This document shows positions 1,433 through 57,488 of a stretch of DNA of 64,000 nucleotides, one piece after another (position 1 is the stretch's first letter; each line of letters begins with the position of its first letter). The notes below the pieces were generated by a model, which was given only the letters and a program-made list of their open reading frames with translations, searched no databases and was not told where the DNA came from. The translations under genes and the position numbers were made by a program. The DNA is from Candidatus Binatia bacterium (GTDB taxonomy: Bacteria; Desulfobacterota; Binatia; UBA12015), in contig DASRFA010000050.1 of NCBI GenBank assembly GCA_035651755.1, positions 40,374 to 104,373 of the forward strand. Direction: 5' to 3'.

Positions 1433-2449
1433 CTAGCCCATCGGGTAGAGAATCTCGCGGGTGATCGCGTCGCACGCGGCGCGGAGTTCTTCCGGGAGCG
1501 TCGTTTCCGCGCCGCGGACGAGGTCGTCGAGCTGCTCGGGCCGTGTGGCTCCGACGATCGTCGACCCGACGAAGTCGTGCGCGAGCGTCCACGCGACGCC
1601 GAGGGTGACGAGCGGGAGACCGGCGTCGGCCGCGATCGCGGCGAAGCGCCGCGTCGACTCGAGGGTCTTCGCGTTCACGAAGCGGCGGGCCATCGCCTGC
1701 GTGCGCGGGCTGTGCTCTCGGTACCAGGTGAAGCGCGCGCCGGCGGGCCAGGCGCCGTCGAGGTACTTGCCGGACAGGACGCCGCCCGCGATCGGGCTGT
1801 AGGGAAGGAGGCTCACCTGCTCGCGCCGGCACACCTCCGCGAGCGCGTCCTCGAAGCGGCGGTTCAGGAGGCTCCAGTTGTTCTGGATCGTCTCGTAGCG
1901 CGGGAGCCCGTGCGCGTCGGCCGCCCAGAGGCTCTTCGTGAGGCCGTACGCCGTCTGGTTGCTGCAACCGATCGCGCGCACCTTGCCCTCGTCGACGACG
2001 CGCGCGAGCCCTTCGAGGGTCTCCTCGATCGGCAGGTCGGGATCCGGCCAGTGCGTCTGGTAGAGGTCGATGTAGTCGGTGCCGAGACGCGCGAGGCTCG
2101 CGTCCACGGCGCGCGCGATCGAGTGCCGGTCGAGCGCGGTGCGGCCGTTCCGGACCGGCGCCTGGAACCAGCCGCCGCCCGGCCCCGCGACCTTGGTCGC
2201 GACGAAGACCGCGTCGCGCGGCTTGCCGGCGAGCCACTTGCCGACGATCTCCTCGCTCCGCCCGGCCCAGCCGCGATCCGGCGGCACGGGATACACCTCG
2301 GCGACGTCGAGGAAGTCGATCCCGGCGTCGTACGCGCGGTCGAGGATCCGAAGGCTCGTCGCCTCGTCGGCCATCGAGCCGAACGTCATCGTGCCGAGGC
2401 AGATCTCCGAGACCACCAATCCCGAGCGCCCGAGCCGTCGCCGCTTCAT
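1433..2449 (-). CDS. Aldo/keto reductase (NADPH-dependent oxidoreductase).
   Basis: Internal ATG of ORF 1433..2806: MKRRRLGRSGLVVSEICLGTMTFG...DFLDVAEVY...AIGCSNQ. The AKR motifs are present and a GGAGGTGA RBS precedes the ATG. The upstream R-rich extension was rejected. Confidence 0.9.
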   Translation of the reverse strand: MKRRRLGRSGLVVSEICLGTMTFGSMADEATSLRILDRAYDAGIDFLDVAEVYPVPPDRGWAGRSEEIVGKWLAGKPRDAVFVATKVAGPGGGWFQAPVRNGRTALDRHSIARAVDASLARLGTDYIDLYQTHWPDPDLPIEETLEGLARVVDEGKVRAIGCSNQTAYGLTKSLWAADAHGLPRYETIQNNWSLLNRRFEDALAEVCRREQVSLLPYSPIAGGVLSGKYLDGAWPAGARFTWYREHSPRTQAMARRFVNAKTLESTRRFAAIAADAGLPLVTLGVAWTLAHDFVGSTIVGATRPEQLDDLVRGAETTLPEELRAACDAITREILYPMG

Positions 2450-24740: not shown

Positions 24741-25595
24741 TTGCGCTGCGTGACGCGCAACGGTTCTCCCACCACCCCCGAACGCTCGCGCTACGCGCGC
24801 CTCGTCTGTGACGCCGCCGGAGTTCGCGGCCGCTGCGCCTTGCGACGCGCCTTCGCCGTGGTCCCGCGCGAGCGGTTTCTCGGACCAGGTCCGTGGCACG
24901 TCTTCGATGGGCCGGGGCCGTATCGAATGACGGAGGACGCCGACCCGCGGCACGTCTACCGGGACGTCCCGGTGGCGATCGATCGCAAGCGGCTCCTGAA
25001 CAACGGTCAGCCCTCGATCGTGGCGTGCCTGATCCAGGCGCTCGCCCTGCGCCCGGGCGCGCATGCGGTGCACGTCGGATCTGGAACGGGATACTTCACC
25101 GCGATTCTCGCCGAGGTCGTCGGCGAGAACGGAAGCGTGACGGCGGTCGAGTACGACGCCGAGCTCGCGGAGCGTGCGCGGGCGAACCTCGCCGATCGGC
25201 CCAACGTCACCGTCGTCCGGGCCGACGGCAACGCGTACGACCCGGGACCGTCGGACGGCATCCTCGTGAACGCCGGTGCGACGCTGCTGCGCCGACTGTG
25301 GGTCCAGTCGCTTCGCGAAGGCGGCCGCCTCGTCCTGCCGCTCACGGGGCCGCACGCGTGGGGCAACGTCCTGGTCGTCACGCGACGCGCGGGAACCTTC
25401 GACGCTCGGTTCCTCGACCCGACAGGGATCGTGATCTTCCCCTGCGTCGGCGGACGCGACGACGCGGATGCGGAGCGGCTCGCGTCCGCCTATGCGGCCG
25501 GCAGGGCCGGCGAAGTTCGCCGGCTTCTCCTGGAGCCACATGCGCCGAGCGCGTCTTGCTGGCTTCATCGCGACGACTCCTGCCTCTCGCTGTGA
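24741..25595 (+). CDS. Protein-L-isoaspartate O-methyltransferase-like SAM-dependent methyltransferase.
   Basis: AVVPRERFL...SIVACLIQALALRPGAHAVHVGSGTGYFTAILAEVVGENGSVTAVEYDAELAERA matches the PIMT core. The start is a TTG or nearby GTG and is uncertain. Confidence 0.7.
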   Translation: MRCVTRNGSPTTPERSRYARLVCDAAGVRGRCALRRAFAVVPRERFLGPGPWHVFDGPGPYRMTEDADPRHVYRDVPVAIDRKRLLNNGQPSIVACLIQALALRPGAHAVHVGSGTGYFTAILAEVVGENGSVTAVEYDAELAERARANLADRPNVTVVRADGNAYDPGPSDGILVNAGATLLRRLWVQSLREGGRLVLPLTGPHAWGNVLVVTRRAGTFDARFLDPTGIVIFPCVGGRDDADAERLASAYAAGRAGEVRRLLLEPHAPSASCWLHRDDSCLSL

Positions 25596-25632
25596 CGATC
25601 CGCGCGTCGGAGGCGCGCGACCGGAGACGGCT

Positions 25633-27897
25633 TCAGCTCGCGCGCAGCGGCTCCGCGCCCGCGTGCGGAGCCTCTTCCGTCGCCGCCGGCACCCAGACCC
25701 GGAACGTCGATCCCCTCCCGAGGTCGCTCTCGACGGACACGGTCCCGCCCAGCATGTCGATGATGCGCCGGACGATGTAGAGGCCGAGGCCGACGCCGCC
25801 CTGCCGGCGCGCGGCGGTGTGCGCCTGGCGGAACGGCTCGAAGATGATCCCGAGCTGGTCGGGCGCGATGCCCATGCCGGTGTCGACGACGCGCAGCACG
25901 ACACCGTCGTCCTCCGGCGCCGCGCTCAGCGATACCGCCCCCTCGTCGGTGAACTTCAAGGCGTTCAGGACGAGGTTCCGCAGGACGACCTTCAGCTTCG
26001 CGGCGTCCGTCGTCACGTCCGGGAGAGCCGTCGCGACGTCGAATTGGAGAGCGACTGCGGGCGCGCGCTCGAGGTGCTCGAGCTCGACGGCGAGCTCGGC
26101 CACGAGATCGGAAATCGCGACGCGGGCCTGGCGGAGAGGCACGCGCCCGCTCTCGAGGCGGCTCAGGTCGAGGACGTCGCTGATGAGACGATGGAGCTCG
26201 CGGCTGCTCCGGCCGATGCGGTCGAGCACTTCTCCCTGCTCCCGGTCGAGGTCGCCGAACGCGCCTTCGCGCAGCAGGTCGCCGTAGCCGATGATCGCGT
26301 TCAGCGGCGTCCGGAGCTCGTGCGACATCATCGCCACGAACTCCGACTTCAAGCGGTTGGCCGCGTCGAGCTCGTCGACGATGCGGGCGTGCTCGAGGGC
26401 GAGCGACGCGAGCTGCGCGAGTCCCTGACCGATCCGGATCTCGCTCGTCTGGAAAGGTCCGTGCTCGGCCGAGCGCGACGCGACCAGAAGGCCCACGATC
26501 TCCGCGCCGCGGCGGAGGGCGACGACGAGCCGCGGGCCGACGCCGCCGCCGCGAGCGAGCGTGCCGAGCCCGGCCGCGCTCGCCTCCACCGTTCCGACGA
26601 GGGGCGCCACGCCTTCGTCGCCGAGCGGGCCGAGCGCGTCCGCGATCGCGCTTCCCGGGATCCGCACGAGCCCGAGCGCGTCGAGCTCGTCGGCCGGGAT
26701 GCCGTGCGCCGCGACCACCGAGAACGCCTGCTCGGCGGGTCGCCAGAGGAGCGTCTGCGCGATCTCGCACCCGAGGACCTCGGACGTGATGCGGCACAGG
26801 CGGTCCGTCAAGCCGGGAAGGTCGAGCGAGCCGAGGAGCTCGCGCCCGACGCGCGCCAGCGCTCCGAAGACCTCCGCCGCCTCGCGCTCCGTCCGGTAGA
26901 GCTCGACGCGCTCGAGCGCGACCGCGAGCTGCGATCCGATCGCGGTGCAGAGCTGGGCGTGACCATCGTCGAACGGGCGCCCCGGGGCCGCCCGGTACGC
27001 GCACAGCGATCCGAAGTACCGCCCGGGGACGCGGAGCGGCGCCGCGATGAGGGCGGAGAACCCGAAGCGGCGAGCGAGCTCGCGCATCGGCCCCGGCTGC
27101 GCGGCCGCGTCGTTCACGATCACCGCTCCCGAGTAGAGCCGGCCGTCGAAGGGCTCGGTCGCCCCGAACGAGAGATGCCGCACCTGCTCCACCGCCTCGG
27201 GCGACATGCCGAACTGCGACGCCAGCCGGAACCGCTCCTCGTCCGGGTTCCAGCGGTACGTGGTCACGATGTCGCAGGGCAGGACGGCCGCGATGCGCCG
27301 CTGCACGCGATCGAGGATCTCCGCGGGGTCGAGCGTGCTCGCGAGATCGCGCGCGACGTCGAGCAGGACGGCGGTCCTGTCCTCGGCGGCGCGGCGCTCG
27401 GTCACGTCGCGCGAGTGGATCACGAAGCCGCCGACGCCCTCGTCGGGGAGCGGATGGCTGCCGATCGATTCGATCACGCGCCAGGAGCCGTCGTTGTGCC
27501 GGTACCGGAACTCGAGCGTCGCGACGCGCCCCGGGTCGGTCAGGCCGTCGGCGAACGTCTCGAGGATGCGGCCGGCGTCGTCGGGATGGACGAGGTCGAA
27601 GGCGCCACGGCCGACGAGGTCGTCGGGGCGATAGCCGAGCACGCGCTCGTGCGACGGGCTCGCGTAGAGGATGATGCCGTTCGCGTCCAGGATCGAGACC
27701 AGGTCCAGACCGTTCTCGATCATGGCGCGGAAGTGGCGCTCCCCGAGCTGGAACGGGACTTTCCGCTCGGGAGCGGCAGTCGCGGGCTGCGCGGTGGCGG
27801 CCGCGCGCTCCGCGGGCTCGGCGACCGGATCCGGCATTGGATCCGGTATCGGATCCGGCATGCTCGGCGTGGGCCCGGGCTTCGACACGATGGGCAT
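25633..27897 (-). CDS. Cytoplasmic PAS-GAF-GAF sensor histidine kinase.
   Basis: The PAS core is ...LDANGIILYASPSHERVLGY.... Two GAF-like blocks follow, then the H-box MMSHELRTPLNAIIGY, then HATPase motifs (NLVLNALKFT, DTGMGI, GGVGLGLYIV). The N-terminus encodes MPDPIPDPMPDP. Confidence 0.9.
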   Translation of the reverse strand: MPIVSKPGPTPSMPDPIPDPMPDPVAEPAERAAATAQPATAAPERKVPFQLGERHFRAMIENGLDLVSILDANGIILYASPSHERVLGYRPDDLVGRGAFDLVHPDDAGRILETFADGLTDPGRVATLEFRYRHNDGSWRVIESIGSHPLPDEGVGGFVIHSRDVTERRAAEDRTAVLLDVARDLASTLDPAEILDRVQRRIAAVLPCDIVTTYRWNPDEERFRLASQFGMSPEAVEQVRHLSFGATEPFDGRLYSGAVIVNDAAAQPGPMRELARRFGFSALIAAPLRVPGRYFGSLCAYRAAPGRPFDDGHAQLCTAIGSQLAVALERVELYRTEREAAEVFGALARVGRELLGSLDLPGLTDRLCRITSEVLGCEIAQTLLWRPAEQAFSVVAAHGIPADELDALGLVRIPGSAIADALGPLGDEGVAPLVGTVEASAAGLGTLARGGGVGPRLVVALRRGAEIVGLLVASRSAEHGPFQTSEIRIGQGLAQLASLALEHARIVDELDAANRLKSEFVAMMSHELRTPLNAIIGYGDLLREGAFGDLDREQGEVLDRIGRSSRELHRLISDVLDLSRLESGRVPLRQARVAISDLVAELAVELEHLERAPAVALQFDVATALPDVTTDAAKLKVVLRNLVLNALKFTDEGAVSLSAAPEDDGVVLRVVDTGMGIAPDQLGIIFEPFRQAHTAARRQGGVGLGLYIVRRIIDMLGGTVSVESDLGRGSTFRVWVPAATEEAPHAGAEPLRAS

Positions 27898-28044
27898 TCC
27901 TCGGCGCCTGGCGCCGCCCCGAGCCCCGACGCGCCTTTCCGGATCATCGGCCGCCGAGGCGCGTCAGTTGACGGCGCGTCGGCCATCGCGCCGTCCCGGG
28001 CGAGCGCGATACCCGGCGGCGTCCGCCGATCGCGGGACGACGGA

Positions 28045-28884
28045 TCAGTCGTACCAGTCGAGCGCCTGGCGCATGGCCTGCTCGTAGGCCTCGAACTCCA
28101 TCCCGCGGTAGGCGCCCGCGATCATCTTCGCGTCGTCCCCCGCGAGGTAGCGGAGCTTCGGCTCGGGATCGTGGACGGCGCGGTGGATCAGCTGCGCGAC
28201 GTCGTCGGGCCCCGGCGCCTCGCCGCCCGGGACGAGGCGCTTGACGACCTCGTCGAACTGGCTGGAGCGCTCCCAGTAGGGCGATTGCGGCGTGAAGGCG
28301 CGGCCGGTGTAGGCGTTGTCGAGCAGCTGCGTGCGGTACTGCCCGGGCTCGATCAGCACGACGCGGATGCCGAACGGCTGCACCTCGTAGTGAAGGGCCT
28401 CGGAGATCGCCTCGAGTGCGTGCTTGCTCGCGGCGTAGAACCCGCCGAACGGCCGCGAGACGAGCCCCGCGATCGACGAAACGTTCACGATCGTCCCGGA
28501 CCGCCGCTCGCGCATCGCGGGCAGGACTGCCCGGATCGTCCGGAGCGGCCCGAAGACGTTCGTCTCGAACTGGCGGCGGACGTCTTCCTCGCTCGCATCC
28601 TCGATGGACGACCGGAGCTCGATGCCGGCGTTGTTGATGAGCACGTCGATCGGCCCGGAGCTCGCGGTCGCCTCGCGGATCGCCGACTGGACGAGCGCGG
28701 GGTCCTCGACGTCGAGGCGCAGGACGCGCAGCGGGAGGTCCGCGCGCTCGGCGACCTCCGTCAAGTCGCGTCCCTTCTCTGGCGATCGCATGGTCGCGAA
28801 CACACGGTCGCCGCGGCGGGCGAAGAGCAGGGCGGTGGCGCGGCCGAAGCCGGTCGAGCAGCCGGTGATGAGGACGTTCTTCAT
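28045..28884 (-). CDS. SDR family oxidoreductase.
   Basis: MKNVLITGCSTGFGRATA, NNAG, and the YAASKHAL catalytic motif. Internal ATG of ORF 28045..28932. Confidence 0.85.
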   Translation of the reverse strand: MKNVLITGCSTGFGRATALLFARRGDRVFATMRSPEKGRDLTEVAERADLPLRVLRLDVEDPALVQSAIREATASSGPIDVLINNAGIELRSSIEDASEEDVRRQFETNVFGPLRTIRAVLPAMRERRSGTIVNVSSIAGLVSRPFGGFYAASKHALEAISEALHYEVQPFGIRVVLIEPGQYRTQLLDNAYTGRAFTPQSPYWERSSQFDEVVKRLVPGGEAPGPDDVAQLIHRAVHDPEPKLRYLAGDDAKMIAGAYRGMEFEAYEQAMRQALDWYD

Positions 28885-29025
28885 GCGGGCTATCATAGCG
28901 AGGGGATCTTCCCCTCGCCCGAGTCGCGGCAAAGCCGCGACCAGGGTCCCACTCCCCAGGTCGCTCCGCTCGCGCGGTACGCGCGGGCGCTGCGCCGCGC
29001 ATGCGGCCGTTACGAGACCCCGCCC

Positions 29026-30108
29026 TCAGCCGCGCACCGCGGCGAGCACGCGCAGGAAGTTCTCTCCGAGGATCTTCCGGATGCGCACGTCCGACCAGCC
29101 GCGGTCGAGCATGTGCTGCACGAGGCGCGGAAGCTCGAGGCAGGTCTTCATGTCGGTCGGAGGCATGATCGTGCCGTCCCAGTCGCTGCCGAGCGACGCG
29201 TGGTCTTCGCCGACCGTGTCGACGATGTGCGCGAGGTGGTCGACGACGACCGACGACCGGCACGACGACGAGCCGCAGAGGAAGCTCGAGTGGTACATGA
29301 CGCCGATCGTCCCGCCGCTGTCGGCGATCGCGCGCAGCTGCTCGTCGTCGAGGTTCCGCCAGTGCGGGTGGACGCCGCTCACCCCGGTGTGCGTGACGAC
29401 GAGCGGGCGCGAGCGGTCGTGCGCCTCGACCGCGTCGAAGAAGCCGCGGCGGCTGACGTGCGCGAGGTCGACCAGCACGCGCCGCGCCTCGAGCGCGCGC
29501 ACCATCTCGCGGCCGGCGCCCGTCAAGCCGGTGTCCGGGCCGCGGCGCGTGGGGGCGCTGGTCGCGCCCAGGCTCGACGACGAGAGGTGGACGAGCGTGA
29601 CGCGGACGACGAGATCGTCCACGAGAAGGTCGAGCGCGGACGGGTCGCGGTCGATCGCGTTGCCGCCCTGGATGCCGACGAACGCCCCGTGCTTGCCGGC
29701 GGCGCGCGCGGCCCGGTACTCGGCGGCGCTCCGCACGAGGGCGAACTGCTCCGGGACCGACGCGAAGATCCCGCGCAGGCGCGCGAGGTTCGCCGCGAAC
29801 GCGCGCCCGCGGCCGGCGGCCGACCGGAGCGGGTTCGTCGTGATGCTCCAGATCGCTCCCGTCACCCCGGCCTCCAGGATGCGCGGGAAGTCGACCTGCG
29901 AGAGGAAGTCGCCGCCGAAGAGGCCGGCGCCGTGGCGGGTGCGGAGGTCGTAGCCGAAGACGCGCGTCCAGATGAACGAGTCGACGTGCAGGTCGATCAC
30001 GTCGGACGCGAGATGAAGCTGTACGGCCTCGGTCGAGATCGCGAGGTCGCGCGCCCACGCGTCGGGGTGCGAGCGGTGGTCGACGACGGCGAGGCGCACG
30101 CGGCGCAT
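29026..30108 (-). CDS. Membrane dipeptidase (peptidase M19, renal-dipeptidase family).
   Basis: The HLD...DSF...HLSSSS...H(T)G...GSDWDG pattern across 360 aa. Internal ATG of ORF 29026..30162. Confidence 0.8.
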   Translation of the reverse strand: MRRVRLAVVDHRSHPDAWARDLAISTEAVQLHLASDVIDLHVDSFIWTRVFGYDLRTRHGAGLFGGDFLSQVDFPRILEAGVTGAIWSITTNPLRSAAGRGRAFAANLARLRGIFASVPEQFALVRSAAEYRAARAAGKHGAFVGIQGGNAIDRDPSALDLLVDDLVVRVTLVHLSSSSLGATSAPTRRGPDTGLTGAGREMVRALEARRVLVDLAHVSRRGFFDAVEAHDRSRPLVVTHTGVSGVHPHWRNLDDEQLRAIADSGGTIGVMYHSSFLCGSSSCRSSVVVDHLAHIVDTVGEDHASLGSDWDGTIMPPTDMKTCLELPRLVQHMLDRGWSDVRIRKILGENFLRVLAAVRG

Positions 30109-30192
30109 GGTGTATGGGACTCGGCGCGGCGGCAAGCGCGGTGGGCGCTGCAGGCGTGCCACGCTTGAATCGCTTCAGCGCATCCGTCGTCA

Positions 30193-31275: not shown

Positions 31276-34034
<2,759 letters not shown>

Positions 34035-34102
34035 TCAGAGACGCGAGGCCCGATCCGCCGTGGACCGGCCGAAGGAGGCGACGCCGAGAAGCGCCGGGGG
34101 CC

Positions 34103-34143
34103 AGAAACAGAAAACCCCCTCCGGCCGGATCGGCGGGAGAGGG
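34103..34143 (-). terminator. Intrinsic terminator hairpin plus U-tract in the leuA 5' leader, the attenuator terminator.
   Basis: Minus-strand RNA: CCCUCUCC-C-GCCG-AUC-CGGC-C-GGAGGGGG followed by UUUUCUGUUUCU, about 100 nt upstream of the leuA ATG. Read directly from the sequence. Confidence 0.6.
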
Positions 34144-34168
34144 CTTCGCGTCGCTCTATTCTTCGGGG

Positions 34169-34246
34169 CTACGCGCGACGAGCCTCTCCCGCCCTGCGAA
34201 GGAGCAGGCCGAGGAGGCCGAGCCGGGTGATCGCGCGCGTTGCCAC
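34169..34246 (-). CDS. Putative leuA leader peptide of 25 codons with six Leu, including the run LGLLGLLL.
   Basis: GTG-initiated frame MATRAITRLGLLGLLLRRAGEARRA* ends 25 nt before the terminator hairpin. The segment GGCGGGAGAGGC near its stop codon is complementary to the terminator 5' arm GCCCUCUCCCGCC, i.e. a candidate antiterminator. Confidence 0.45.
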   Translation of the reverse strand: MATRAITRLGLLGLLLRRAGEARRA

Positions 34247-34362
34247 GATGGGGCGTCGATATGGGACCGGCGCCGACGAGTCAAGCGGTTTCCGTCGCGA
34301 CCGCGTCGCTCTAGACTCATCCGACCGCCGGGGAGCCGGCCCGGCGCGTAGCCGGAGGGCGA

Positions 34363-35487
34363 TTGCAGGCAGACCGACGCAAGCCGATTCGGGACGTGAG
34401 GCCGCGATCGCGCGAGGCGGCGGCGCGCGCCGCGCAGCGCCGCGCGGCGTTCTGGGTCGCGCTCCTCGTCGGCCTCGGCATCCTCCTCTGGCTGCTGGGG
34501 TCGATCCTCCTGCCGTTCGTGCTCGGCATGGCGATCGCCTACTTCCTGAGCCCTCTCATCCAGCAGCTCGAGCAGCGGGGCATCTCCCGCACGATCGCCG
34601 CCGGCGGGCTCGTCGTCGGCTTCATCGTCGTCACGGGCGTCGCGCTCGTCTTCCTGGTTCCGCTCGTCGTGGAGCAGGTGACCGCGCTCGTGCAGCGCCT
34701 GCCCGACCTCGTGGCCTGGTTGCGCCAGTCGCTCCTGCCGATCGTCGCCCGGTTCGCCGGACGCTTCGGGCTCCGCATCGCGCCGGTGGTCTCGCAGCCG
34801 TCGCCCGAGATGGTGCAGCGGGTCGCGGGATTCGTGAGCGGGCTCGCGACGGGCCTCCTGAGCGGGGGCCTCGCGCTCGTGAACGCGCTCGCGCTCCTCG
34901 CGATCACACCCGTGGTCGCGTTCTACCTCCTGCGCGACTGGCCGAAGATCGTGCGCGACGTCGATTCGTGGCTCCCGCGCGACCACGCCGACACGATCCG
35001 CGAGCAGATGCGCGCGATCGACGGCGTGCTCGCCGGCTTCGCGCGCGGTGCCGCGCTCGTCTGCCTGGTGCTGGGGGCGTTCTACGCGGTCGCGCTGACG
35101 CTCGCCGGGCTCGAGTTCGGGCTCCTGATCGGGCTCGCCGCGGGAGCGATCTCGTTCATCCCGTATCTCGGGGTGATCGTCGGCTTCACGACGTCGGTCG
35201 GCGTCGCGCTGTATCAGTTCTGGGGCGACTGGGGGTGGATCGCCCTGGTCGCGGGCATCTTCGTCGCCGGTCAGATCCTCCAGGACTACTTCTTGACGCC
35301 GCGTCTCGTCGGCGAGAAGGTCGGTCTGCACCCGCTCTGGGTCATCTTCGGCGTGCTCGCCGGCGGCGTGCTGTTCGGATTCGTCGGCGTCCTGCTCGCG
35401 GTGCCGGCGTGCGCGGTGATCGGCGTCGTCGTCCGCTTCGCGATCGCGCGCTACAAGGACTCGGAGGTCTACCTCGGCGAGGAGTGA
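34363..35487 (+). CDS. AI-2E family transporter (PerM/YdiK-like permease).
   Basis: 374 aa with about eight TM helices and a family-typical pattern (ILLPFVLGMAIAYFLSPL..., ISFIPYLG). The TTG start is uncertain. Confidence 0.85.
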   Translation: MQADRRKPIRDVRPRSREAAARAAQRRAAFWVALLVGLGILLWLLGSILLPFVLGMAIAYFLSPLIQQLEQRGISRTIAAGGLVVGFIVVTGVALVFLVPLVVEQVTALVQRLPDLVAWLRQSLLPIVARFAGRFGLRIAPVVSQPSPEMVQRVAGFVSGLATGLLSGGLALVNALALLAITPVVAFYLLRDWPKIVRDVDSWLPRDHADTIREQMRAIDGVLAGFARGAALVCLVLGAFYAVALTLAGLEFGLLIGLAAGAISFIPYLGVIVGFTTSVGVALYQFWGDWGWIALVAGIFVAGQILQDYFLTPRLVGEKVGLHPLWVIFGVLAGGVLFGFVGVLLAVPACAVIGVVVRFAIARYKDSEVYLGEE

Positions 35488-35511
35488 CGGCGGCGCTCGC
35501 CCGCGAACCGG

Positions 35512-36669
35512 CTATTGTCCCGGTACGCCGTCCGTGCCGGGCTTGAAGCGGAAGATCTGGTACGGCGCGTGCGCGTCGACGTTCGAGCGCGGCTGGAAGA
35601 TCACCTCCTGCAGCGAGCTGCACGTGAAGTAGAGCCAGCCGCCCGGTCCGAAGCTGAAGCCGTCGGGCCAGCGGATGCGATCGCTCTTGAGGAGCGTCTT
35701 CAGCTCCCCCTGGCGGTCGAGGCGATGGATCGCGTCGTGCTCCATGTCGCTCAGGTACACCTGGTCCTGCGCGTCGATCGTGATGCCGTCGCTCATCGGC
35801 TTCTCCGCGAAGACCTCGATGCGATGGGAGAGGTCGTCGTTCGAGAGCGACTCGTCGTCGAGGTCGCGCGCTCGGATGCGGTAGAGGAGGGTCGACGTGA
35901 CGGGCGCGAAGTAGAGCCACTCGCCGCGCTTGTCGAGCGCGATCGAGTCGACGTTCGGGCGCACCGTGAACACGCCGAGCACGACCATGTCGCGGCCGCG
36001 GACGCGCGTGACGTACGGCATCGCCTGCACCGCCGGGTGCGCTTCGAGGAGCCGGCGCGCGCGGCGGCGCTCGACGTCGTAGGTCACGATCGCGCCGCGG
36101 TTCCGGAAGATGCTCGCGTCCGCGATGTAGATGCGGTTCGCGTCGGGCGAGATCTGGCAGTCGTTCAGCATCGATCCGAGGCCCGCGACGTCGCTCGGGA
36201 ACTCGAACTCGTGCACGAGGCGGTTCGTCGCGAGGTCGAACGCGAGGAGCTTCGGCGCGCCCGCGCCGTGGCGGGCGTAGTCGAGGACCCAGAGGCGATC
36301 CTTCGCGTCGATGCGGAGCGCGAGCGGGGTGTCGAAGGACGGGCCGTCGTCGCGCGGCTTCTGCGAGGCGGCGTCGGGGTACGGCACCGGCTTGCCGTCG
36401 ACGAGCTCGGCGACCTTCACGTCCGGGCCCGCCTCGGGATGGAACGTGAAGAAGACGCGCCCCGATCGCGACACCGCGACGTTCCCGGGCGGCAGCGGAA
36501 GGTCGGCGACCGTCTCGAGCGCCGACTCCGGCAGCGCGGGATCGGTCGTCCAGCGGTCCTCGAGGTGCGAGCCGCCGCCGTGGCGCAGGCGCACCACGAG
36601 CAGGAACATCGCGGCGACGGCGGCGATCGCGAGCAGGACGCGTCCGAGGATTGTGAGAGCGCGCTTCAT
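35512..36669 (-). CDS. Major royal jelly/yellow-related (MRJP) β-propeller protein with an N-terminal membrane anchor or signal.
   Basis: MKRALTILGRVLLAIAAVAAMFLLVV, then SMLNDCQISPDANRIYIADASIFRNRGAIVTYD and other MRJP-like blocks. GGAGGAG RBS. Internal ATG of ORF 35512..36882. Confidence 0.75.
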   Translation of the reverse strand: MKRALTILGRVLLAIAAVAAMFLLVVRLRHGGGSHLEDRWTTDPALPESALETVADLPLPPGNVAVSRSGRVFFTFHPEAGPDVKVAELVDGKPVPYPDAASQKPRDDGPSFDTPLALRIDAKDRLWVLDYARHGAGAPKLLAFDLATNRLVHEFEFPSDVAGLGSMLNDCQISPDANRIYIADASIFRNRGAIVTYDVERRRARRLLEAHPAVQAMPYVTRVRGRDMVVLGVFTVRPNVDSIALDKRGEWLYFAPVTSTLLYRIRARDLDDESLSNDDLSHRIEVFAEKPMSDGITIDAQDQVYLSDMEHDAIHRLDRQGELKTLLKSDRIRWPDGFSFGPGGWLYFTCSSLQEVIFQPRSNVDAHAPYQIFRFKPGTDGVPGQ

Positions 36670-36746
36670 CGCTCCTCCGGCCGACGCACGTGGCGCCGGG
36701 TGCGCGACCCTTGCATCCCTCGGCGGTCGCGGACAAGACTCGCCGG

Positions 36747-37205
36747 ATGACGCATCACCCAGGCGAGCGCCGTCGGTCGGCTCTGGCCGTCGCGCTGATC
36801 CTCGCGCTCTCCACTCTCCCCGCGTGCTCGTTCGTCGACAGCTCCGCGAGCATCTCGCAGTCGATCGGCGCGAGCTTCGCATCGAGCTCGGCGAGCTCGC
36901 GCAGCTCCTCTCCGGGCGACGACCAGACCGCCTACAAGAACGACGTCCGCGACTACACCTACGCGTACGTGCGCTCGACGAAGAGCGCCGGGGACTTCGA
37001 ACGCGGCCTCGCCGGGGTCGCGGAGAAGCACGGCATCTCGAACTGGCAGAGCGACCAGACGACCTGGGTCGGGATCGGCGAAGGGCTCGCGAAGGCGCGC
37101 GTCAACCATACCGAGCTCGAGGTGTTCAAGAAGAACCTCGCCGACTCGGACCCCGATCACATGACCGACATCCAGCGCGGCTACGACGCGTACCGGCCGG
37201 CCTGA
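36747..37205 (+). CDS. Lipoprotein, hypothetical.
   Basis: MTHHPGERRRSALAVALILALSTLPACS has a lipobox. 152 aa. Internal ATG of ORF 36690..37205. Confidence 0.65.
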   Translation: MTHHPGERRRSALAVALILALSTLPACSFVDSSASISQSIGASFASSSASSRSSSPGDDQTAYKNDVRDYTYAYVRSTKSAGDFERGLAGVAEKHGISNWQSDQTTWVGIGEGLAKARVNHTELEVFKKNLADSDPDHMTDIQRGYDAYRPA

Positions 37206-37212
37206 GGTCGGG

Positions 37213-39138
37213 TTGCGGGGCGCTCGGCGGCGCCGGCCGCCGCGGATCCGGCCGCAGTCGCTCGGCCTCGCGCTCGCAATCGCGCTCTTCGCGGCCGACG
37301 CGTCGGCGGCGCGCGCAGACGGCCTGACACGCGCGATCGACTACCTGACGATCGCGGCGAACGAGGGCGGCTCGAGCGGAGGCCACGCCGCCATCCGGTT
37401 CGGCGACGAGACCTACCACTTCCAGCACGACGACCTCGGCCTGGTCCGCTCGACGCGCGAGGACTCGCGCGAGTTCCTGGCGGCGTACGCGGTCCTGCAG
37501 AACCGCTCGATGCACGTGGGCCGGATCGCCGTGTCGGAGGAGACGTACGGCGCGCTGCGGGACGCGTTCAACGAGCGCTTCCTCGCGCAGACGCGCGACC
37601 TCGAGCGGCTGGAGTCGCTCAGGCGCGATCGCGATCTCCTGAGCGCGCTCGTCGCGGCGCGCGACCGCCGCGCCGAAGGACCGCTCGTCTCGGTTCCCGC
37701 CGCCGGCTTCTTCTTGGCGGACGCGTCCGACGAGCGGCCGACGGAGGGCGGCGCCGCCCGCGAGTCGCCCGCTCTCGCCCGCTTGCGCGATCGCGTCGCG
37801 CGCGAGCGTGGCGCCGCGTTTCTCTCGGAGCGACGAGCGGCGCTCGCGCGCGACCTCGCGAGCGGCGGCGCCGATGCCGGCGAGCTCCCCCGGCCCGGGA
37901 GCATCGCGGCGCGCTACCTCGATCGTTTCGCGGGCGTCCTCGCGCTCGACGCCCTCGAGCGCGCGCTGCCGCTTCGCGCGAACGCGTACCGGGCGCCCGG
38001 CGACGGGTCGTTCGCGCTCGCGGACGACGAGCGCGCGTGGATCGCGCGCTTCGCCGACGACCTCGAAGCGTCGCTCGCGCGCCTCGCAGCATCCGAGCGA
38101 CCGGGCTGGAGCCGGGCGCTCATCGTCGGAATGGCCCGTCTCGCGGCGCTTCGCGAATCGCTCGACTCGAACAGGCTCGTCGTCCTGGATGCGTACCCCG
38201 CGAATCCACTTCGCCTGGACCGCGCTGCGATCGGCCGTCAGCGTGATCTTCTCCCCGAGCTCGTCCTGGAGGCGCGCGACGATCTCGCGACCGCGCGCGC
38301 ATCGCTTCCGCAAGCGGAGCGGCCGCGCGAGGCGGACTGGACGCGCGTCGAGACCGCGGCGAACCGCGTGCTCGAGCTCGAGCGCGCCGCCTCGTTCGGC
38401 GACGAGCTGCGCGTCGCGCCGCATGCCCTCGTGCCGTCGCGGCCGGCGCGGCGGAAGGCGGCGATCGTGCCGGACCTGGCGGCGGAGAAGCTCGCGCGCG
38501 CGCTCGCCGCGACGAACGATGCGCTGCGCGCCGCCGAGGACGACCTGCGCGCTCGCGCGGGCTACGGCCTCGTCGCGCGCAACTGCGTGACCGAGATCTG
38601 GCGGGTGGTCGACGAGACGCTGGGCGGCGAAGCGGTGGTGTCGCTCGGCGGCCGGCTCGCGCCCGGCGAGCGCTTGACGTTCATCCCGATCGTGTCGGGC
38701 GCGGCGGTGAGCGCGGAGCTGCGGGTGGTCGCGGAAGAGGACGTGCCGTCGTACCGGGCGCTCCGGCTCGCCGCGCTCGCCGAGCGCGACGGCGACCTGC
38801 CGACGCGCCTCCGCGAGTCGACGACGTTCTCGTCCACGATCTCGCCGCGCCCCGGCGAGCGCGACTCGTTCTTCGTGTTCTTCACCGACGGCCTGGCGGC
38901 GGTGCGGCCGGTGCTCGGGGCGGCGAACCTCGCGGCGGCGGTCGGCGCCAGCGTCGCCGGCGTCGCGGTCGCGCCGGTCGACGGCGGGCGCCTCCTCTGG
39001 CGCGGCCTCCGCGGCGCCTTCTTCAGCGCGCCGGAGCTCGCGTTCGTCGCGATCCGGAAGGGGTCGTTCGACTTCGTCCCGCGCCGGGATCGGCCGGAAC
39101 CGGAGACGCTCGATCCGCTGCTCGCGCTCGCGCGCTGA
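37213..39138 (+). CDS. Secreted hypothetical protein, possibly with a DUF4105/Lnb-like N-terminal domain.
   Basis: Signal peptide LGLALAIALFAADASAARA and a GGHAAIRFGDETYHF motif. 641 aa, Ala/Arg-rich. Confidence 0.65.
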   Translation: MRGARRRRPPRIRPQSLGLALAIALFAADASAARADGLTRAIDYLTIAANEGGSSGGHAAIRFGDETYHFQHDDLGLVRSTREDSREFLAAYAVLQNRSMHVGRIAVSEETYGALRDAFNERFLAQTRDLERLESLRRDRDLLSALVAARDRRAEGPLVSVPAAGFFLADASDERPTEGGAARESPALARLRDRVARERGAAFLSERRAALARDLASGGADAGELPRPGSIAARYLDRFAGVLALDALERALPLRANAYRAPGDGSFALADDERAWIARFADDLEASLARLAASERPGWSRALIVGMARLAALRESLDSNRLVVLDAYPANPLRLDRAAIGRQRDLLPELVLEARDDLATARASLPQAERPREADWTRVETAANRVLELERAASFGDELRVAPHALVPSRPARRKAAIVPDLAAEKLARALAATNDALRAAEDDLRARAGYGLVARNCVTEIWRVVDETLGGEAVVSLGGRLAPGERLTFIPIVSGAAVSAELRVVAEEDVPSYRALRLAALAERDGDLPTRLRESTTFSSTISPRPGERDSFFVFFTDGLAAVRPVLGAANLAAAVGASVAGVAVAPVDGGRLLWRGLRGAFFSAPELAFVAIRKGSFDFVPRRDRPEPETLDPLLALAR

Positions 39139-39169
39139 CGAGCCGGCGTCTGGCGGCCGACGTGGCCCC

Positions 39170-41398
39170 TTGATATCGCGGGCGGCGATGTCGTCCGCGA
39201 CGTCCTGGTTCGGCGGCTTGCGTCCGCTCGCAGCGGTCGCGTACGCGCTCGTCGCCTCGTCGCTCGTGTTCGCTCTTGCGGGATGCAGCGATCGCGCGGC
39301 GCCGGGCGGCGCCGACGTTCGCGTCGAGCACCTGGGCGATCGGACGCGCATCGTCGGACGCGAGGCGACGGTCGAGATCGCGCACGCGCCGTTCCGCATT
39401 TCGGTCTCCGATCGCGACGGTGCGGTGCTCGCGAGCCAGACCGCGACCGGCGGTCTCTTCTTCGAGCGCTCCGGCGGACGCTTCGACCTCCGCTCCGTGG
39501 ACTCGGAGAGCGACGTGGAAGGCGGCGTCGCTCTCGACGTCTCGACGAGCGAGGAGGATCCGCTCGCCGGCGTTTCGGCGCCGGCGTCGGTGACCGTGCG
39601 CTTCGCGAGCGCGCGCACCGTCGAGGTCGTGTTCGCGCCCGCGGCCCCGACGAGCGTGGTCGCGCTCGGAGCGCGCTGGGATTCGCGTTCCGACGAGGCG
39701 ATCTACGGCTTGACGGAGCGCCTCCGGGACGCGCCGCCGTTCGCGCCCGGGACGATCGACATCCCGGTCGACGACGTGCGGCCGCCGGAGGTCGGATCGC
39801 TGAATCGCCGCGGCGAGACCGTCGCGATGTTCGTCACCCCGACCTTCTCGCTGTACGCGCCGTTCTACCAGAGCTCCCGCGGCTACGGCCTCGCCGTGCA
39901 GGGGACGATGCCCGGAGCATTCGACGTCGCGTCCACCGAGAGCGACGTGCTGAGCTTCCGGTTCGAGACCGGGACGCGGCCCGAGAACCAGCGGCTCGCG
40001 TTCGACCTGTACGTCGGTCCCGAGTACGCGACGATCCTCGACGAGTACACCGCGCGCTTCGGCCGACCGTTCGTGCCGCCCGACTGGGCTTTCCTCAACT
40101 GGCGCTGGCGCGGCGAGCTCGAGGTCGCCGACCCCGCGGTCCTCGACGGCACGCCGGTGAACGCAGAGTTCGCCGAGGACGTGTCGATGTTCGACGACCT
40201 CGGCATCCCGCCCGGCGTCTACCTGTTCGATCGCCCGGTGTTCCCGGGGAACTACGGCTTCGCGCGCTTCGCGTGGGACGAGACGCGCCTCCCGAACCCG
40301 GGCGCGATGCTCGCAGCGCTCGATCGGCGCGGCTACCGGACGATGATCTGGAGCTCGACGTGGACGTGCGGCTCCGAGCCGGGCGACAACGGCCTCGAAG
40401 CGCAGGCGCGCGGCTTCCTTGCCCCCGGCTCCGCGGGCCCGCCGAGCTGCGCCGACGTCGGCGGCACGAGCTTCATCCTCGACGTGACGAATGCCGACGC
40501 GCGCGAGTGGTGGAAGGAGAAGGTGCGCGACTTCGTCGCCGCCTGGGGCATCGACGGCATCAAGCTCGACCGCGGCGAGGAGCACATCCCGTCAGCGGCG
40601 TCGGACCTCTGGGCGGACGGCCGCACCGGCCGCGAGGTGCACAACGACTACGTGAACATCCAGACGAAGCTGCACAACGAGGCGCTGCGCGAGGCGCACC
40701 CGGACGGCGACTTCGTGCTCTTCACGCGCTCGGGCTACGCGGGGGCGCAGCAGTGGGCGGTCGTCTGGGGAGGCGACATCCCGGGCAGCGAGCTGTTCGG
40801 CGGCGGCCCCGGAACGGATCTCGGTCTCCGCAGCGCGATCATCAGCCAGCAGCGCGCCGCGTTCATGGGCTTCCCGATCTGGGGCTCGGACACGGGCGGG
40901 TACTACGAGTTCAAGGACCGCGACGTGTTCGCGCGCTGGATCGAGTTCAGCGCGTTCTCCGGGATCATGGAGATCGGCGGCGTCGGCCCGCACGCGCCGT
41001 GGACGATGCCGACCGAGCCGTCGTACGACGCGGAGATGATCGAGATCTACCGTCGGTACACCGTCTTGCGCTCGGCGCTGCAGCCGTACGTGGTCGCGGC
41101 CGCGCGCGAGGCGGGCGAGAGCGGGATGCCGATCGTGCGGCCGATGCCGTTCGCCGATCGCAGCGACCCGGCGCTGCGCGATCTGTGGGACGAGTACCTG
41201 TTCGGGCCCGACCTGCTCGTCGCGCCGGTCTGGCGGATCGGCGAGCGAGCGCGGAGCGTCTACTTCCCGCGCGGCCGCTGGCGGAGCTACTGGAACGCCT
41301 CCGAGGTGCACCAGGGCGGCACCACGGCCACCGTCGAGGCACCGCTCGACGTGATCCCGGTGTTCGTCCGGGACGGCGCCGAGGTGCCGGGACCGTAG
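39170..41398 (+). CDS. Glycoside hydrolase family 31 (α-glucosidase/α-xylosidase-like) lipoprotein.
   Basis: Lipobox LVFALAGCSD. The GH31 catalytic blocks are GIDGIKLDRGEE (nucleophile region), VHNDYV, and FVLFTRSGYAGAQQWAVVWGGDI (acid/base). Confidence 0.85.
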   Translation: MISRAAMSSATSWFGGLRPLAAVAYALVASSLVFALAGCSDRAAPGGADVRVEHLGDRTRIVGREATVEIAHAPFRISVSDRDGAVLASQTATGGLFFERSGGRFDLRSVDSESDVEGGVALDVSTSEEDPLAGVSAPASVTVRFASARTVEVVFAPAAPTSVVALGARWDSRSDEAIYGLTERLRDAPPFAPGTIDIPVDDVRPPEVGSLNRRGETVAMFVTPTFSLYAPFYQSSRGYGLAVQGTMPGAFDVASTESDVLSFRFETGTRPENQRLAFDLYVGPEYATILDEYTARFGRPFVPPDWAFLNWRWRGELEVADPAVLDGTPVNAEFAEDVSMFDDLGIPPGVYLFDRPVFPGNYGFARFAWDETRLPNPGAMLAALDRRGYRTMIWSSTWTCGSEPGDNGLEAQARGFLAPGSAGPPSCADVGGTSFILDVTNADAREWWKEKVRDFVAAWGIDGIKLDRGEEHIPSAASDLWADGRTGREVHNDYVNIQTKLHNEALREAHPDGDFVLFTRSGYAGAQQWAVVWGGDIPGSELFGGGPGTDLGLRSAIISQQRAAFMGFPIWGSDTGGYYEFKDRDVFARWIEFSAFSGIMEIGGVGPHAPWTMPTEPSYDAEMIEIYRRYTVLRSALQPYVVAAAREAGESGMPIVRPMPFADRSDPALRDLWDEYLFGPDLLVAPVWRIGERARSVYFPRGRWRSYWNASEVHQGGTTATVEAPLDVIPVFVRDGAEVPGP

Positions 41399-56753: not shown

Positions 56754-57488
56754 TCAAGGGCGCTCGCAGAGCGCGTCGACGATGGCGATCGACACTTTCG
56801 TGAGCCGAGCGACCGCGGTGCGCGTGTCGCGCCCGAGGCGAACGAGGGCGGGCACGCTCGCGGGGTGTCGCAGCACGTGGCGGAGGGCGGCGCCGATTCG
56901 TGGTCGGCCCTCCGCGTCGGTCAGCAGGAGCGCCTCGGCCGCGATCTCGGAATCCGCGTCGTCGCTGATCGAGCGCGCGCAGAGCCACGGCACGCCGGCG
57001 CGCTCGCACGCGTCCGCGATCGCCGCCGACTCCATGTCCACCGCGTCCGCTTCGTGGCGGCGCCGGAGCTCCGCCTTGTCGGCGCGCGTGAGCGCGGCGG
57101 CCGGCGCGCTCACGAGGCGGCCCGACGGACGCGGCGCGCCGAGCGCCGTCTGCGCCAGCATCGGCTGGAAGCGCGCACCGCTCGCGCCGTCGACGACATC
57201 CGCCGGCACGACGACGTCGCCCACCGCGAGCCCGCGTCGCAGCGCGCCGGCGATCCCGATCGCGAGGGCGGCGCGCGGCGCGTGCGCCCGCAGGAGCGCG
57301 TCGGTCGTCGCGCGCGCCCGCGCGAGGCCGATGCCGGTCGTCGCCGCGACGATGCGAGCGCCGCGGCGAGCCCCGTGCCAGGTGCCCGCCGCGTCGCGAG
57401 CGAGGCCGAGCCGCCTCACGAGCGGCGCCAGCTCGATCGCCAGCGCGGCCACGACGAGCAGCGGAGCCGTGCCGTCGCGGGCGGTCAC
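56754..57488 (-). CDS. Nucleoside phosphorylase-family protein (PNP_UDP_1; MTA/SAH nucleosidase or futalosine-hydrolase-like).
   Basis: Only the last 244 codons of ORF 56754..58964 are protein-like: LLVVAALAIELAPLVRRLG...DMESAAIADACERAGVPWLCARSISD. A GTG start overlaps the upstream stop in a GTGA arrangement. Confidence 0.7.
   Translation of the reverse strand: MTARDGTAPLLVVAALAIELAPLVRRLGLARDAAGTWHGARRGARIVAATTGIGLARARATTDALLRAHAPRAALAIGIAGALRRGLAVGDVVVPADVVDGASGARFQPMLAQTALGAPRPSGRLVSAPAAALTRADKAELRRRHEADAVDMESAAIADACERAGVPWLCARSISDDADSEIAAEALLLTDAEGRPRIGAALRHVLRHPASVPALVRLGRDTRTAVARLTKVSIAIVDALCERP

Follow-up and report, generated by a model that had tools for sequence, protein, structure and literature searches.

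A candidate leucine-responsive transcription attenuator upstream of leuA in a Candidatus Binatia genome and its relatives

The 64,000-nucleotide (nt) stretch of Candidatus Binatia contig DASRFA010000050.1 analyzed here, referred to as the window, carries on its minus strand a short leader upstream of leuA, the gene for a long-form 2-isopropylmalate synthase. This leader combines an open reading frame (ORF) dense in Leu codons, a hairpin of the intrinsic-terminator type, and a strand that can form a competing antiterminator. As judged from sequence and predicted folding, it is very probably a leucine-responsive, ribosome-mediated transcription attenuator, which would control leuA and, by operon position, the adjacent corA. 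Its components and the genes around it are as follows.

34279..34284, minus strand: putative −35 hexamer TTGACT, placed by its conserved position
34256..34261, minus strand: putative −10 hexamer TATCGA, placed by its conserved position
34169..34246, minus strand: leader-peptide ORF MATRAITRLGLLGLLLRRAGEARRA, 25 codons plus TAG, from direct reading and homologous ORFs
34199..34222, minus strand: regulatory Leu run (region 1), six Leu in eight codons (CUC four times, CUG, CUU)
34172..34194, minus strand: region 2, antiterminator 5′ strand GGGCGGGAGAGGCUCGUCGCGCG, leader codons 18–25
34115..34143, minus strand: terminator hairpin core (regions 3 and 4), spanning 34147..34110 with the GAAG/UUUUC pairs
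34103..34114, minus strand: U-rich tail UUUUCUGUUUCU, read from the sequence
34002..34102, minus strand: spacer of 101 nt between terminator and leuA ATG, with a Shine–Dalgarno (SD) sequence AAGGAG at 34013..34008
32250..34001, minus strand: leuA, 583 residues, the regulated gene (NCBIfam)
31276..32253, minus strand: corA, Mg2+/Co2+ transporter of 325 residues with a GMN motif (Pfam and TIGR00383)
34363..35487, plus strand: AI-2E-family transporter gene, divergent from leuA (family match)

The leader ORF agrees base for base with the first-pass annotation, which had described a GTG-initiated frame of 25 codons with six Leu codons in a run of eight. It begins with GTG at 34246 and ends with TAG at 34171..34169, and codons 9–16 read CUC GGC CUC CUC GGC CUG CUC CUU. 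Among the 127,954 eight-codon windows in the six frames of the 64 kb sequence (approximately 70% G+C), this run is the only one with at least six Leu, and of 233 short ORFs, only the leader contains such a stretch. As is typical of attenuators, the short ORF is thus enriched in a single amino acid, here Leu, the end product of the leuA pathway.

The hairpin, CCCUCUCC-C-GCCG-AUC-CGGC-C-GGAGGGGG, begins 25 nt past the leader stop codon and runs into the U-rich tail, with the coordinates and letters first proposed for a strong hairpin at this distance. It is predicted to be stable: the core has an energy of −21.4 kcal/mol, which the GAAG/UUUUC extension lowers to −26.1 kcal/mol. Runs of at least four T occur only 12 times in the window, both strands counted, and no other clean, strong hairpin directly abuts one of them. 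The hairpin pattern is present as a single copy, with no matches expected from shuffled sequence. An intrinsic terminator therefore lies between the leader ORF and leuA, with the caveats that its U tract is interrupted and that a simple terminator scanner run over the window did not report it. The scanner result is a false negative, for which the C·C mismatch, by splitting the stem into segments of eight and four pairs, is the probable cause.

It had also been proposed that the 3′ end of the leader ORF is complementary to the 5′ arm of the terminator. GGCGGGAGAGG (34193..34183) does pair with CCUCUCCCGCC of that arm over 11 contiguous pairs, although the twelfth pair that the proposal implied requires a bulged C. 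The 2:3 antiterminator, formed by GGGCGGGAGAGGCUCGUCGCGCG (34194..34172) with CGCGACGCGAAGCCCUCUCCCGCC, which ends at 34132, in the segment 34147..34131, has a predicted energy of −36.1 kcal/mol and is more stable than the terminator when each is folded alone. Both the 2:3 and the 3:4 structures form on folding, and they exclude one another through their shared strand. The effect of a stalled ribosome was modeled on transcripts ended before the terminator 3′ arm, in which the ribosome footprint was masked before folding. With the A site on Leu codons 9–14, the antiterminator is the minimum free energy (MFE) structure (−41 to −32 kcal/mol); with the A site at codons 15–16 it is weakened; and a ribosome placed at the end of the leader, on the stop codon, makes it impossible, so that the masked folds behave as the proposed exclusivity requires. 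The MFE structure of the full-length leader comprises a long 1:2 hairpin and the terminator (−87 kcal/mol, z = −2.3); folded alone, the 1:2 hairpin has an energy of −28.1 kcal/mol.

These elements suggest the following mechanism. Transcription would start from the TTGACT-17-TATCGA promoter, approximately 0–3 nt before the leader GTG. Under a shortage of charged tRNA-Leu, the ribosome would stall within the six Leu codons (codons 9–16) and leave GGGCGGGAGAGGCUCGUCGCGCG free to pair with the emerging terminator 5′ arm, and the resulting antiterminator (−36 kcal/mol) would allow read-through into leuA-corA. With ample leucine, the ribosome would reach the UAG and cover GGGCGGGAGAGGCUCGUCGCGCG, whereupon the 5′ arm would pair with the 3′ arm (−21 to −26 kcal/mol) and, together with the U-rich tail, stop transcription 101 nt before leuA.

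Searches of a 5.8-billion-protein collection with the window LeuA returned no high-identity match; the best were two JGI metagenome proteins at 79%, followed by matches at 72–69%, several of them labeled Myxococcota bacterium. Contigs were sought for ten LeuA relatives, one of which yielded no DNA, and a Polyangiaceae locus (L024) from a LeuA scan of GTDB contigs was added. This set was retrieved through the LeuA protein and is therefore unbiased for the RNA element. Its carriers are L082 (79% LeuA identity), L083, L084/85/88, L086, L087, L089, L090, and L024, which share the short ORF, a GGCGGGAGAGG-like region 2, a CCCUCUCCCGCCG...CCGGAGRGGG hairpin, and a U-rich tail. A dense Leu run is present in each of them except L086, with four scattered Leu. 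Where the contigs extend upstream, the layout is TTGACN, 17 nt, TAnnnn, 7–10 nt, ATG or GTG, and an ORF of 20–26 codons; the TTGACN-17-TAnnnn motif was not found in L024, though ORF, region 2, and terminator are present there. Representative leader peptides are as follows.

L082: MATRIDIRSGLLGLLLRRAGEVQRA
L083: MPPRREIHLALSLALLLSGAGGVARA
L084: MVRSIALALLLDLLLREAGEA
L087: MAIRRNLALGLLDLRGLLLTGAGEG
L090: MTSRAQVLLGLLLGLPMPMAVEP
L024: MRRALPLSLLGLLLTEAGAA

The complete architecture is kept down to 64% LeuA identity, and the comparative search thus finds ORF, region 2, hairpin, and tail recurring upstream of leuA in relatives. The GTDB scan gave 80 loci (L001–L080), among which the best of the matches listed are 56–67% identical to the window LeuA. 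An nhmmer profile of the element additionally picked out three of these 80 leuA loci (L003, L037, and L058), labeled Proteobacteria or Deltaproteobacteria bacterium, the former designation of this phylum. In the window itself the profile found a single element, whose hairpin matches on both strands. A further set was derived by scanning metagenome contigs for the hairpin core, which gave at least 120 contigs, 80 of them extracted as loci. In approximately 30 of these 80 the hairpin lies 59–207 nt upstream of a long-form leuA (62–75% identity), and in approximately 25 it precedes a shorter isopropylmalate-synthase-like gene of about 385 residues. Overall, the whole arrangement upstream of leuA is repeated in approximately 40 metagenomic contigs beyond the protein-retrieved set. 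LeuA identities of 62–79% among the related loci, together with differing flanking genes, indicate that these are not assembly duplicates of one organism.

Fifty-one distinct leaders were aligned, most of them chosen by the terminator-core query. Their ORFs are 20–34 codons long (median 25, with six Leu), and the stop codon precedes the hairpin by 12–61 nt, usually 20–40. At least four Leu in eight codons are found in frame in 45 of the 51; the other two frames give 0–2, and 3 once. Five different Leu codons are used across the alignment, which argues that Leu identity is conserved, and not one nucleotide string. The terminator core is invariant, a feature fixed by the query for most rows. Its A-rich/U-rich flank covaries (CGAAA:UUUCG, CCAAA:UUUGG, CGAAG:CUUCG), with 25 two-sided cells against 13.5 ± 3.4 in shuffles (reached by 1 of 500) and a covariation score of 0.116 against 0.089 (reached by none of 500). 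Flank cells are paired in 88.5% of cases compared with at most 56% when one strand is slid. The tail consensus in relatives is UUUCGYGUUUCUGG, the first half of which forms pairs with the A-rich flank on the 5′ side of the hairpin. The antiterminator is likewise kept, with 95.4% of cells paired compared with 53–64% when slid. Its variation comprises 22 pair-keeping changes, all one-sided to G·U, and 26 further varying cells that are mismatches. RNAalifold, applied to the 51 leaders, returned the terminator as the only structure.

The putative promoter recurs at the matching position in the window and approximately 50 related loci, as TTGACN, a 17-nt (rarely 18-nt) spacer, and TAnnnn. In these relatives 3–10 nt, most often 9, separate the TAnnnn hexamer from the ATG or GTG of the leader. 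The seventh base past the −10 hexamer of the window is an A (34249), 3 nt ahead of the GTG, and it is likely that transcription would start there. A simple promoter scanner did not report the leader promoter, whose −10, being no more than TAnnnn, puts it below the scanner's threshold. No SD sequence was found ahead of the window leader ORF. Of 52 leaders, 8 have a GGAG, GAGG, or AGGA 4-mer at −18..−4, which mostly lies within or beside the −10; by comparison, 27 of 28 leuA genes of the same contigs have an AAGGAG- or GGAGGA-type SD. With no SD and a start codon this close behind a conserved promoter, the most economical reading, and a fairly probable one, is that the leader mRNA is leaderless or has a 5′ untranslated region of at most 3 nt. 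The first-pass description of a classic attenuator thus fits the logic of ORF, terminator, and antiterminator, but not the initiation of the leader, which is SD-less and apparently leaderless or nearly so.

Several observations weigh against an attenuator of this kind. Masking the Leu codons does not shift the full-length RNA away from the terminator at equilibrium, and the switch must accordingly depend on kinetics, as it does in classical attenuators. Pairing of region 1 with region 2 is not above that expected from composition, with 63% of cells paired and no covariation across the 51 leaders. Region 2 is paired no better by the native upstream sequence than by shuffled versions of it, CUC/CUU-rich RNA being inherently complementary to GGGAGAGG. 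The antiterminator shows no two-sided covariation in the alignment, because its 3′ strand is invariant. The interrupted U tract becomes even weaker in the closest relatives (CUUUCUGCUUCU in L082, CUUCGUGCUUCU in L083), which makes the efficiency of termination uncertain. A sub-clade of relatives has Leu-poor leaders. Initiation at a GTG with no SD requires that the lineage translate leaderless or near-leaderless mRNA. Finally, the attenuator-like leuA and ilvB leaders of Streptomyces coelicolor did not behave classically on mutation, according to the summary in PMC1262725.

Some of these points would also fit a switch that is real but set by a protein, a tRNA, or a small molecule, as has been suggested for the actinobacterial LEU element or for T-boxes, with the leader ORF as a by-product of a C/U-rich strand that has to pair with the G/A-rich region 2. 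A strand complementary to GGGAGAGG could yield a Leu-like run through structure alone, and the equal pairing of region 2 by shuffled sequence, the missing SD, and, as summarized in PMC1262725, the S. coelicolor leaders all agree with this possibility. It is nevertheless improbable. The frame is conserved, with its start at a fixed distance from the promoter, its stop 12–61 nt before the hairpin, and Leu enriched in that frame only, and the Leu codons come in five synonymous forms. Region 2 falls exactly inside the footprint of a ribosome at the stop codon, no T-box or other Rfam family is detected (E ≤ 10), and the non-homologous Leu-run ORFs that precede leuA in many phyla are confined to the sense strand.

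Somewhat less probable again is that the terminated leader transcript or its peptide is a trans-acting functional product, with cis-regulation secondary, as for rnTrpL and peTrpL of Sinorhizobium. The leader transcript, structured and approximately 140 nt long, would be both abundant and stable, precedents exist (PMC7298713, PMC7968998), and the C-terminus of the peptide (..AGE..) is conserved. However, the AGE codons are the antiterminator strand GCGGGAGAGG, so that their conservation is explained at the RNA level, and the remaining peptide is poorly conserved except in Leu content. The element always lies immediately upstream of an isopropylmalate-synthase-type gene, and a trans-acting product would in any case be compatible with cis-attenuation. 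A chance ORF beside an ordinary insulating or orphan terminator is effectively refuted by conservation of the full architecture: spurious ORFs abound in high-GC genomes and the hairpin escaped the scanner, but the Leu density and the hairpin are each unique in the window, and the divergent orientation of the upstream neighbor leaves the terminator no co-directional gene to terminate. Leucine-responsive attenuation by a translating ribosome remains by far the best account of the leader.

The target gene is clearly assigned: leuA exceeds the cut-offs of NCBIfam PRK03739 (875 bits) and TIGR00970 (772 bits), and its start is the ATG at 34001, behind a good SD. CorA scores 221 bits with Pfam and 201 bits with TIGR00383, and its GMN motif is present. 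The TGA of leuA and the ATG of corA overlap as ATGA at 32253..32250, as first annotated, and simple scanners detected neither promoter nor terminator between the two genes. A corA follows leuA in L081 (1771..2091, 71% identity, 16-nt overlap) and L083 (4277..5254, 66%, 63-nt gap); in L082 an uncharacterized partial ORF overlaps the leuA end in a similar way, and more distant relatives have other genes downstream. The proposed co-regulation of leucine synthesis and Mg2+ uptake would follow solely from this 4-nt overlap and the uninterrupted junction. As the linkage is confined to the three closest relatives, it is an operon arrangement of local extent and does not belong to the element itself. 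Co-transcription, and hence co-attenuation, of leuA and corA is likely within this small clade, where it is best regarded as a curiosity.

A further stem is predicted in the spacer on the minus strand, between CGUCGCCUCCUUCG (34081..34066) and the SD/start region of leuA, CGAAAGGAGACGACG (34017..34002), and a comparable SD stem (CGUCGUCUCC : GGAGACGACG) is seen in L082, L083, and L084. SD sequestration as a second layer of control was rejected, as a mean of 2.9 of four SD bases is paired in 36 relatives compared with 2.7 in shuffled sequence. Pairing of the Leu run with the leuA SD was also rejected: it is absent from the MFE structure, in which the Leu run pairs with region 2, and the SD lies approximately 190 nt downstream.

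Related leaders vary in their regulatory codons and in the genes they precede. Six leaders of long-form leuA genes (L086, L108, L149, L107, L113, and L135) contain only 3–5 scattered Leu. Thr runs take the place of Leu in L086 (MTFRLHTTTWLPLPLARAEEA), L108 (MTFRKHTTTWLRLPLARAEEA), and L149 (...RTTSTTVGLALRLF...), and region 2 has a mismatch at its sixth base in L086, L107, L108, L113, and L149 (GGCGGAAGAG, GGCGGTAGAG, or GGCGGCAGAG). The loci with the shorter gene include L091, L109, L117, L129, L131, L134, L137–L139, L153, L154, L162, L164, and L168. Their Leu-run leaders end in ...LLLTGAGEG(A/L)xGR, with an unchanged hairpin and the tail UUUCGUGUCUCUGG, and the gene of approximately 385 residues is isopropylmalate/citramalate-synthase-like (FDTTLRDGEQ...), 27–32% identical to the window LeuA and about 200 residues shorter. 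Leaders with Trp codons are found on the same promoter, region 2, and terminator in L140 (MAMAIRRGWSWKWCLDPSPTRGAGEGFRGR; hairpin at 1711..1739), L144 (...AWTVCKWKV...), and L169 (...AWTVWKCKV...). Those of L140 and L169 sit upstream of an MFS-type transporter gene; the L144 contig ends 146 nt past the hairpin. The Trp-codon version may be a re-targeted attenuator.

It is interesting to speculate that the window element belongs to a large family, not yet catalogued, whose members are SD-less and probably leaderless attenuators of Myxococcota-like bacteria; we consider the chances of this reading about even. All members would share one chassis: a TTGACN-17-TAnnnn promoter, a start codon no more than approximately 3 nt from the transcription start, the antiterminator strand ...GCGGGAGAGG, a terminator of the form CCCUCUCCCGCCG...CCGGAGRGGG, and the tail UUUCGYGUUUCUGG. 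The family would take in the chassis before two non-orthologous isopropylmalate-synthase-type genes and its Trp-codon form before an MFS transporter. If so, attenuators would spread as modules with swapped regulatory codons.

Leu-run ORFs are also found upstream of leuA well outside the group that carries this element. A search of positions −330..−30 relative to long-form leuA found a short ORF containing LLL in 32 of 78 GTDB loci, compared with none of 78 antisense and one in a downstream control. These loci come from many phyla and include members of Dormibacterota (...ELLLT), Rokubacteria, Eremiobacterota, Actinomycetota, Halomonas (...LDLRLLA..), and Steroidobacteraceae. The ORFs are non-homologous across phyla, and many are followed by a terminator.

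Elsewhere in the neighborhood, overlapping long ORFs at 33776..34351 (plus strand), 34156..35331 (minus strand), and 32052..35546 (plus strand) have no Pfam match and were discounted as spurious, the usual artifacts of high-GC sequence. Two very long ORFs, at 25468..30168 (plus strand, 1566 residues) and 37126..39618 (minus strand, 830 residues), also lack a Pfam match at E ≤ 1e-5 and may be either spurious high-GC ORFs or uncharacterized genes. An MRJP/SGL beta-propeller-like protein is encoded at 35512..36882 (minus strand), and a tRNA-Ala(CGC) call at 57336..57430 (minus strand) is, at 95 nt, unusually long for a tRNA.

A scan of the whole window at Rfam gathering thresholds returned nothing, a permissive scan of 33700..34700 gave chance matches only (E ≥ 1.1), and the element family is not detected by Rfam 15. 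Membership in RF00512 Leu_leader, the Leu/Phe leader, or the T-box was rejected, as none of these matches 33700..34700 at E ≤ 10. Vitreschak et al. 2004 and Lopatovskaya et al. 2010 reportedly surveyed attenuators across proteobacteria and other phyla. In the literature searched, we found no description of leader-peptide attenuation, or of SD-less leaders, in Myxococcus, Myxococcota, or deltaproteobacteria, with the limit that earlier surveys may list deltaproteobacterial leuA cases. What is new is a confident regulatory annotation for a lineage for which elements of this type are absent from Rfam and from the searchable literature. Leader-peptide attenuation of leuA is itself a textbook mechanism, to which this analysis adds nothing; the gain lies in a precise promoter prediction and regulatory annotation for high-GC, mostly uncultured Myxococcota-like bacteria, and the approximately 50 aligned examples could seed a covariance model. 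The arrangement further suggests that a leaderless or 3-nt-leader upstream ORF can be translated efficiently enough for coupling to transcription, which bears on the spread of SD-independent initiation beyond Actinobacteria and Deinococcus.

Among the closest known systems is the leu operon leader leuL of E. coli, which also acts on leuA as the first gene and whose Leu codons are mostly the rare CUA. The leuL leader of E. coli and Salmonella (RF00512) likewise combines a Leu-run ORF with mutually exclusive antiterminator and terminator, and a ribosome at its stop codon blocks the antiterminator (PMC5314783). The window element has no detectable homology to leuL in sequence or structure. In place of four consecutive Leu codons (PMC5314783), it has six, interspersed with Gly and drawn from the common CUC, CUG, and CUU. 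Unlike leuL, it has an SD-less GTG start approximately 3 nt from the probable transcription start and an antiterminator (−36 kcal/mol) that is more stable than the terminator, and the downstream operon is leuA-corA instead of leuABCD.

Attenuation of leuA by a leader peptide is on record for E. coli and Streptococcus (PMC5314783), as well as for Corynebacterium glutamicum (PMC4046766). Like the window, C. glutamicum combines high G+C content and a long-form LeuA with a Leu-codon leader before a monocistronic-type leuA (PMC4046766). It is also the closest precedent for an SD-less leader, as the leader peptide of its ilvBNC operon is formed without a ribosome-binding site, according to Morbach et al. 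2000 as cited in PMC4046766. However, it belongs to a different phylum and has no sequence similarity to the window element. The actinobacterial LEU element is described as a pseudoknot in which Leu codons pair with the leuA SD, with no obvious terminator (Seliverstov et al. 2005, PMC1262725); this description sets it apart from the window leader, which has a separate terminator approximately 100 nt before the SD.

T-box leaders likewise place a terminator/antiterminator switch before amino-acid genes and sense the charging of a specific tRNA, but the window leader has no specifier loop, T-box sequence, or Rfam T-box match, and carries a translatable ORF. The leuA leaders of Streptococcus, identified by PASIFIC and Term-seq, are closer in design, with Leu-codon upstream ORFs that overlap an anti-antiterminator and a terminator/antiterminator pair before leuA (PMC5314783). 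They differ in belonging to low-GC Firmicutes, in being SD-led, and in having experimental Term-seq support. The streptococcal leaders evolved independently, such that the design recurs without sequence homology (PMC5314783). The same holds here: the Leu-leader design is general and its sequences are not homologous, as has been noted for Streptococcus and E. coli (PMC5314783).

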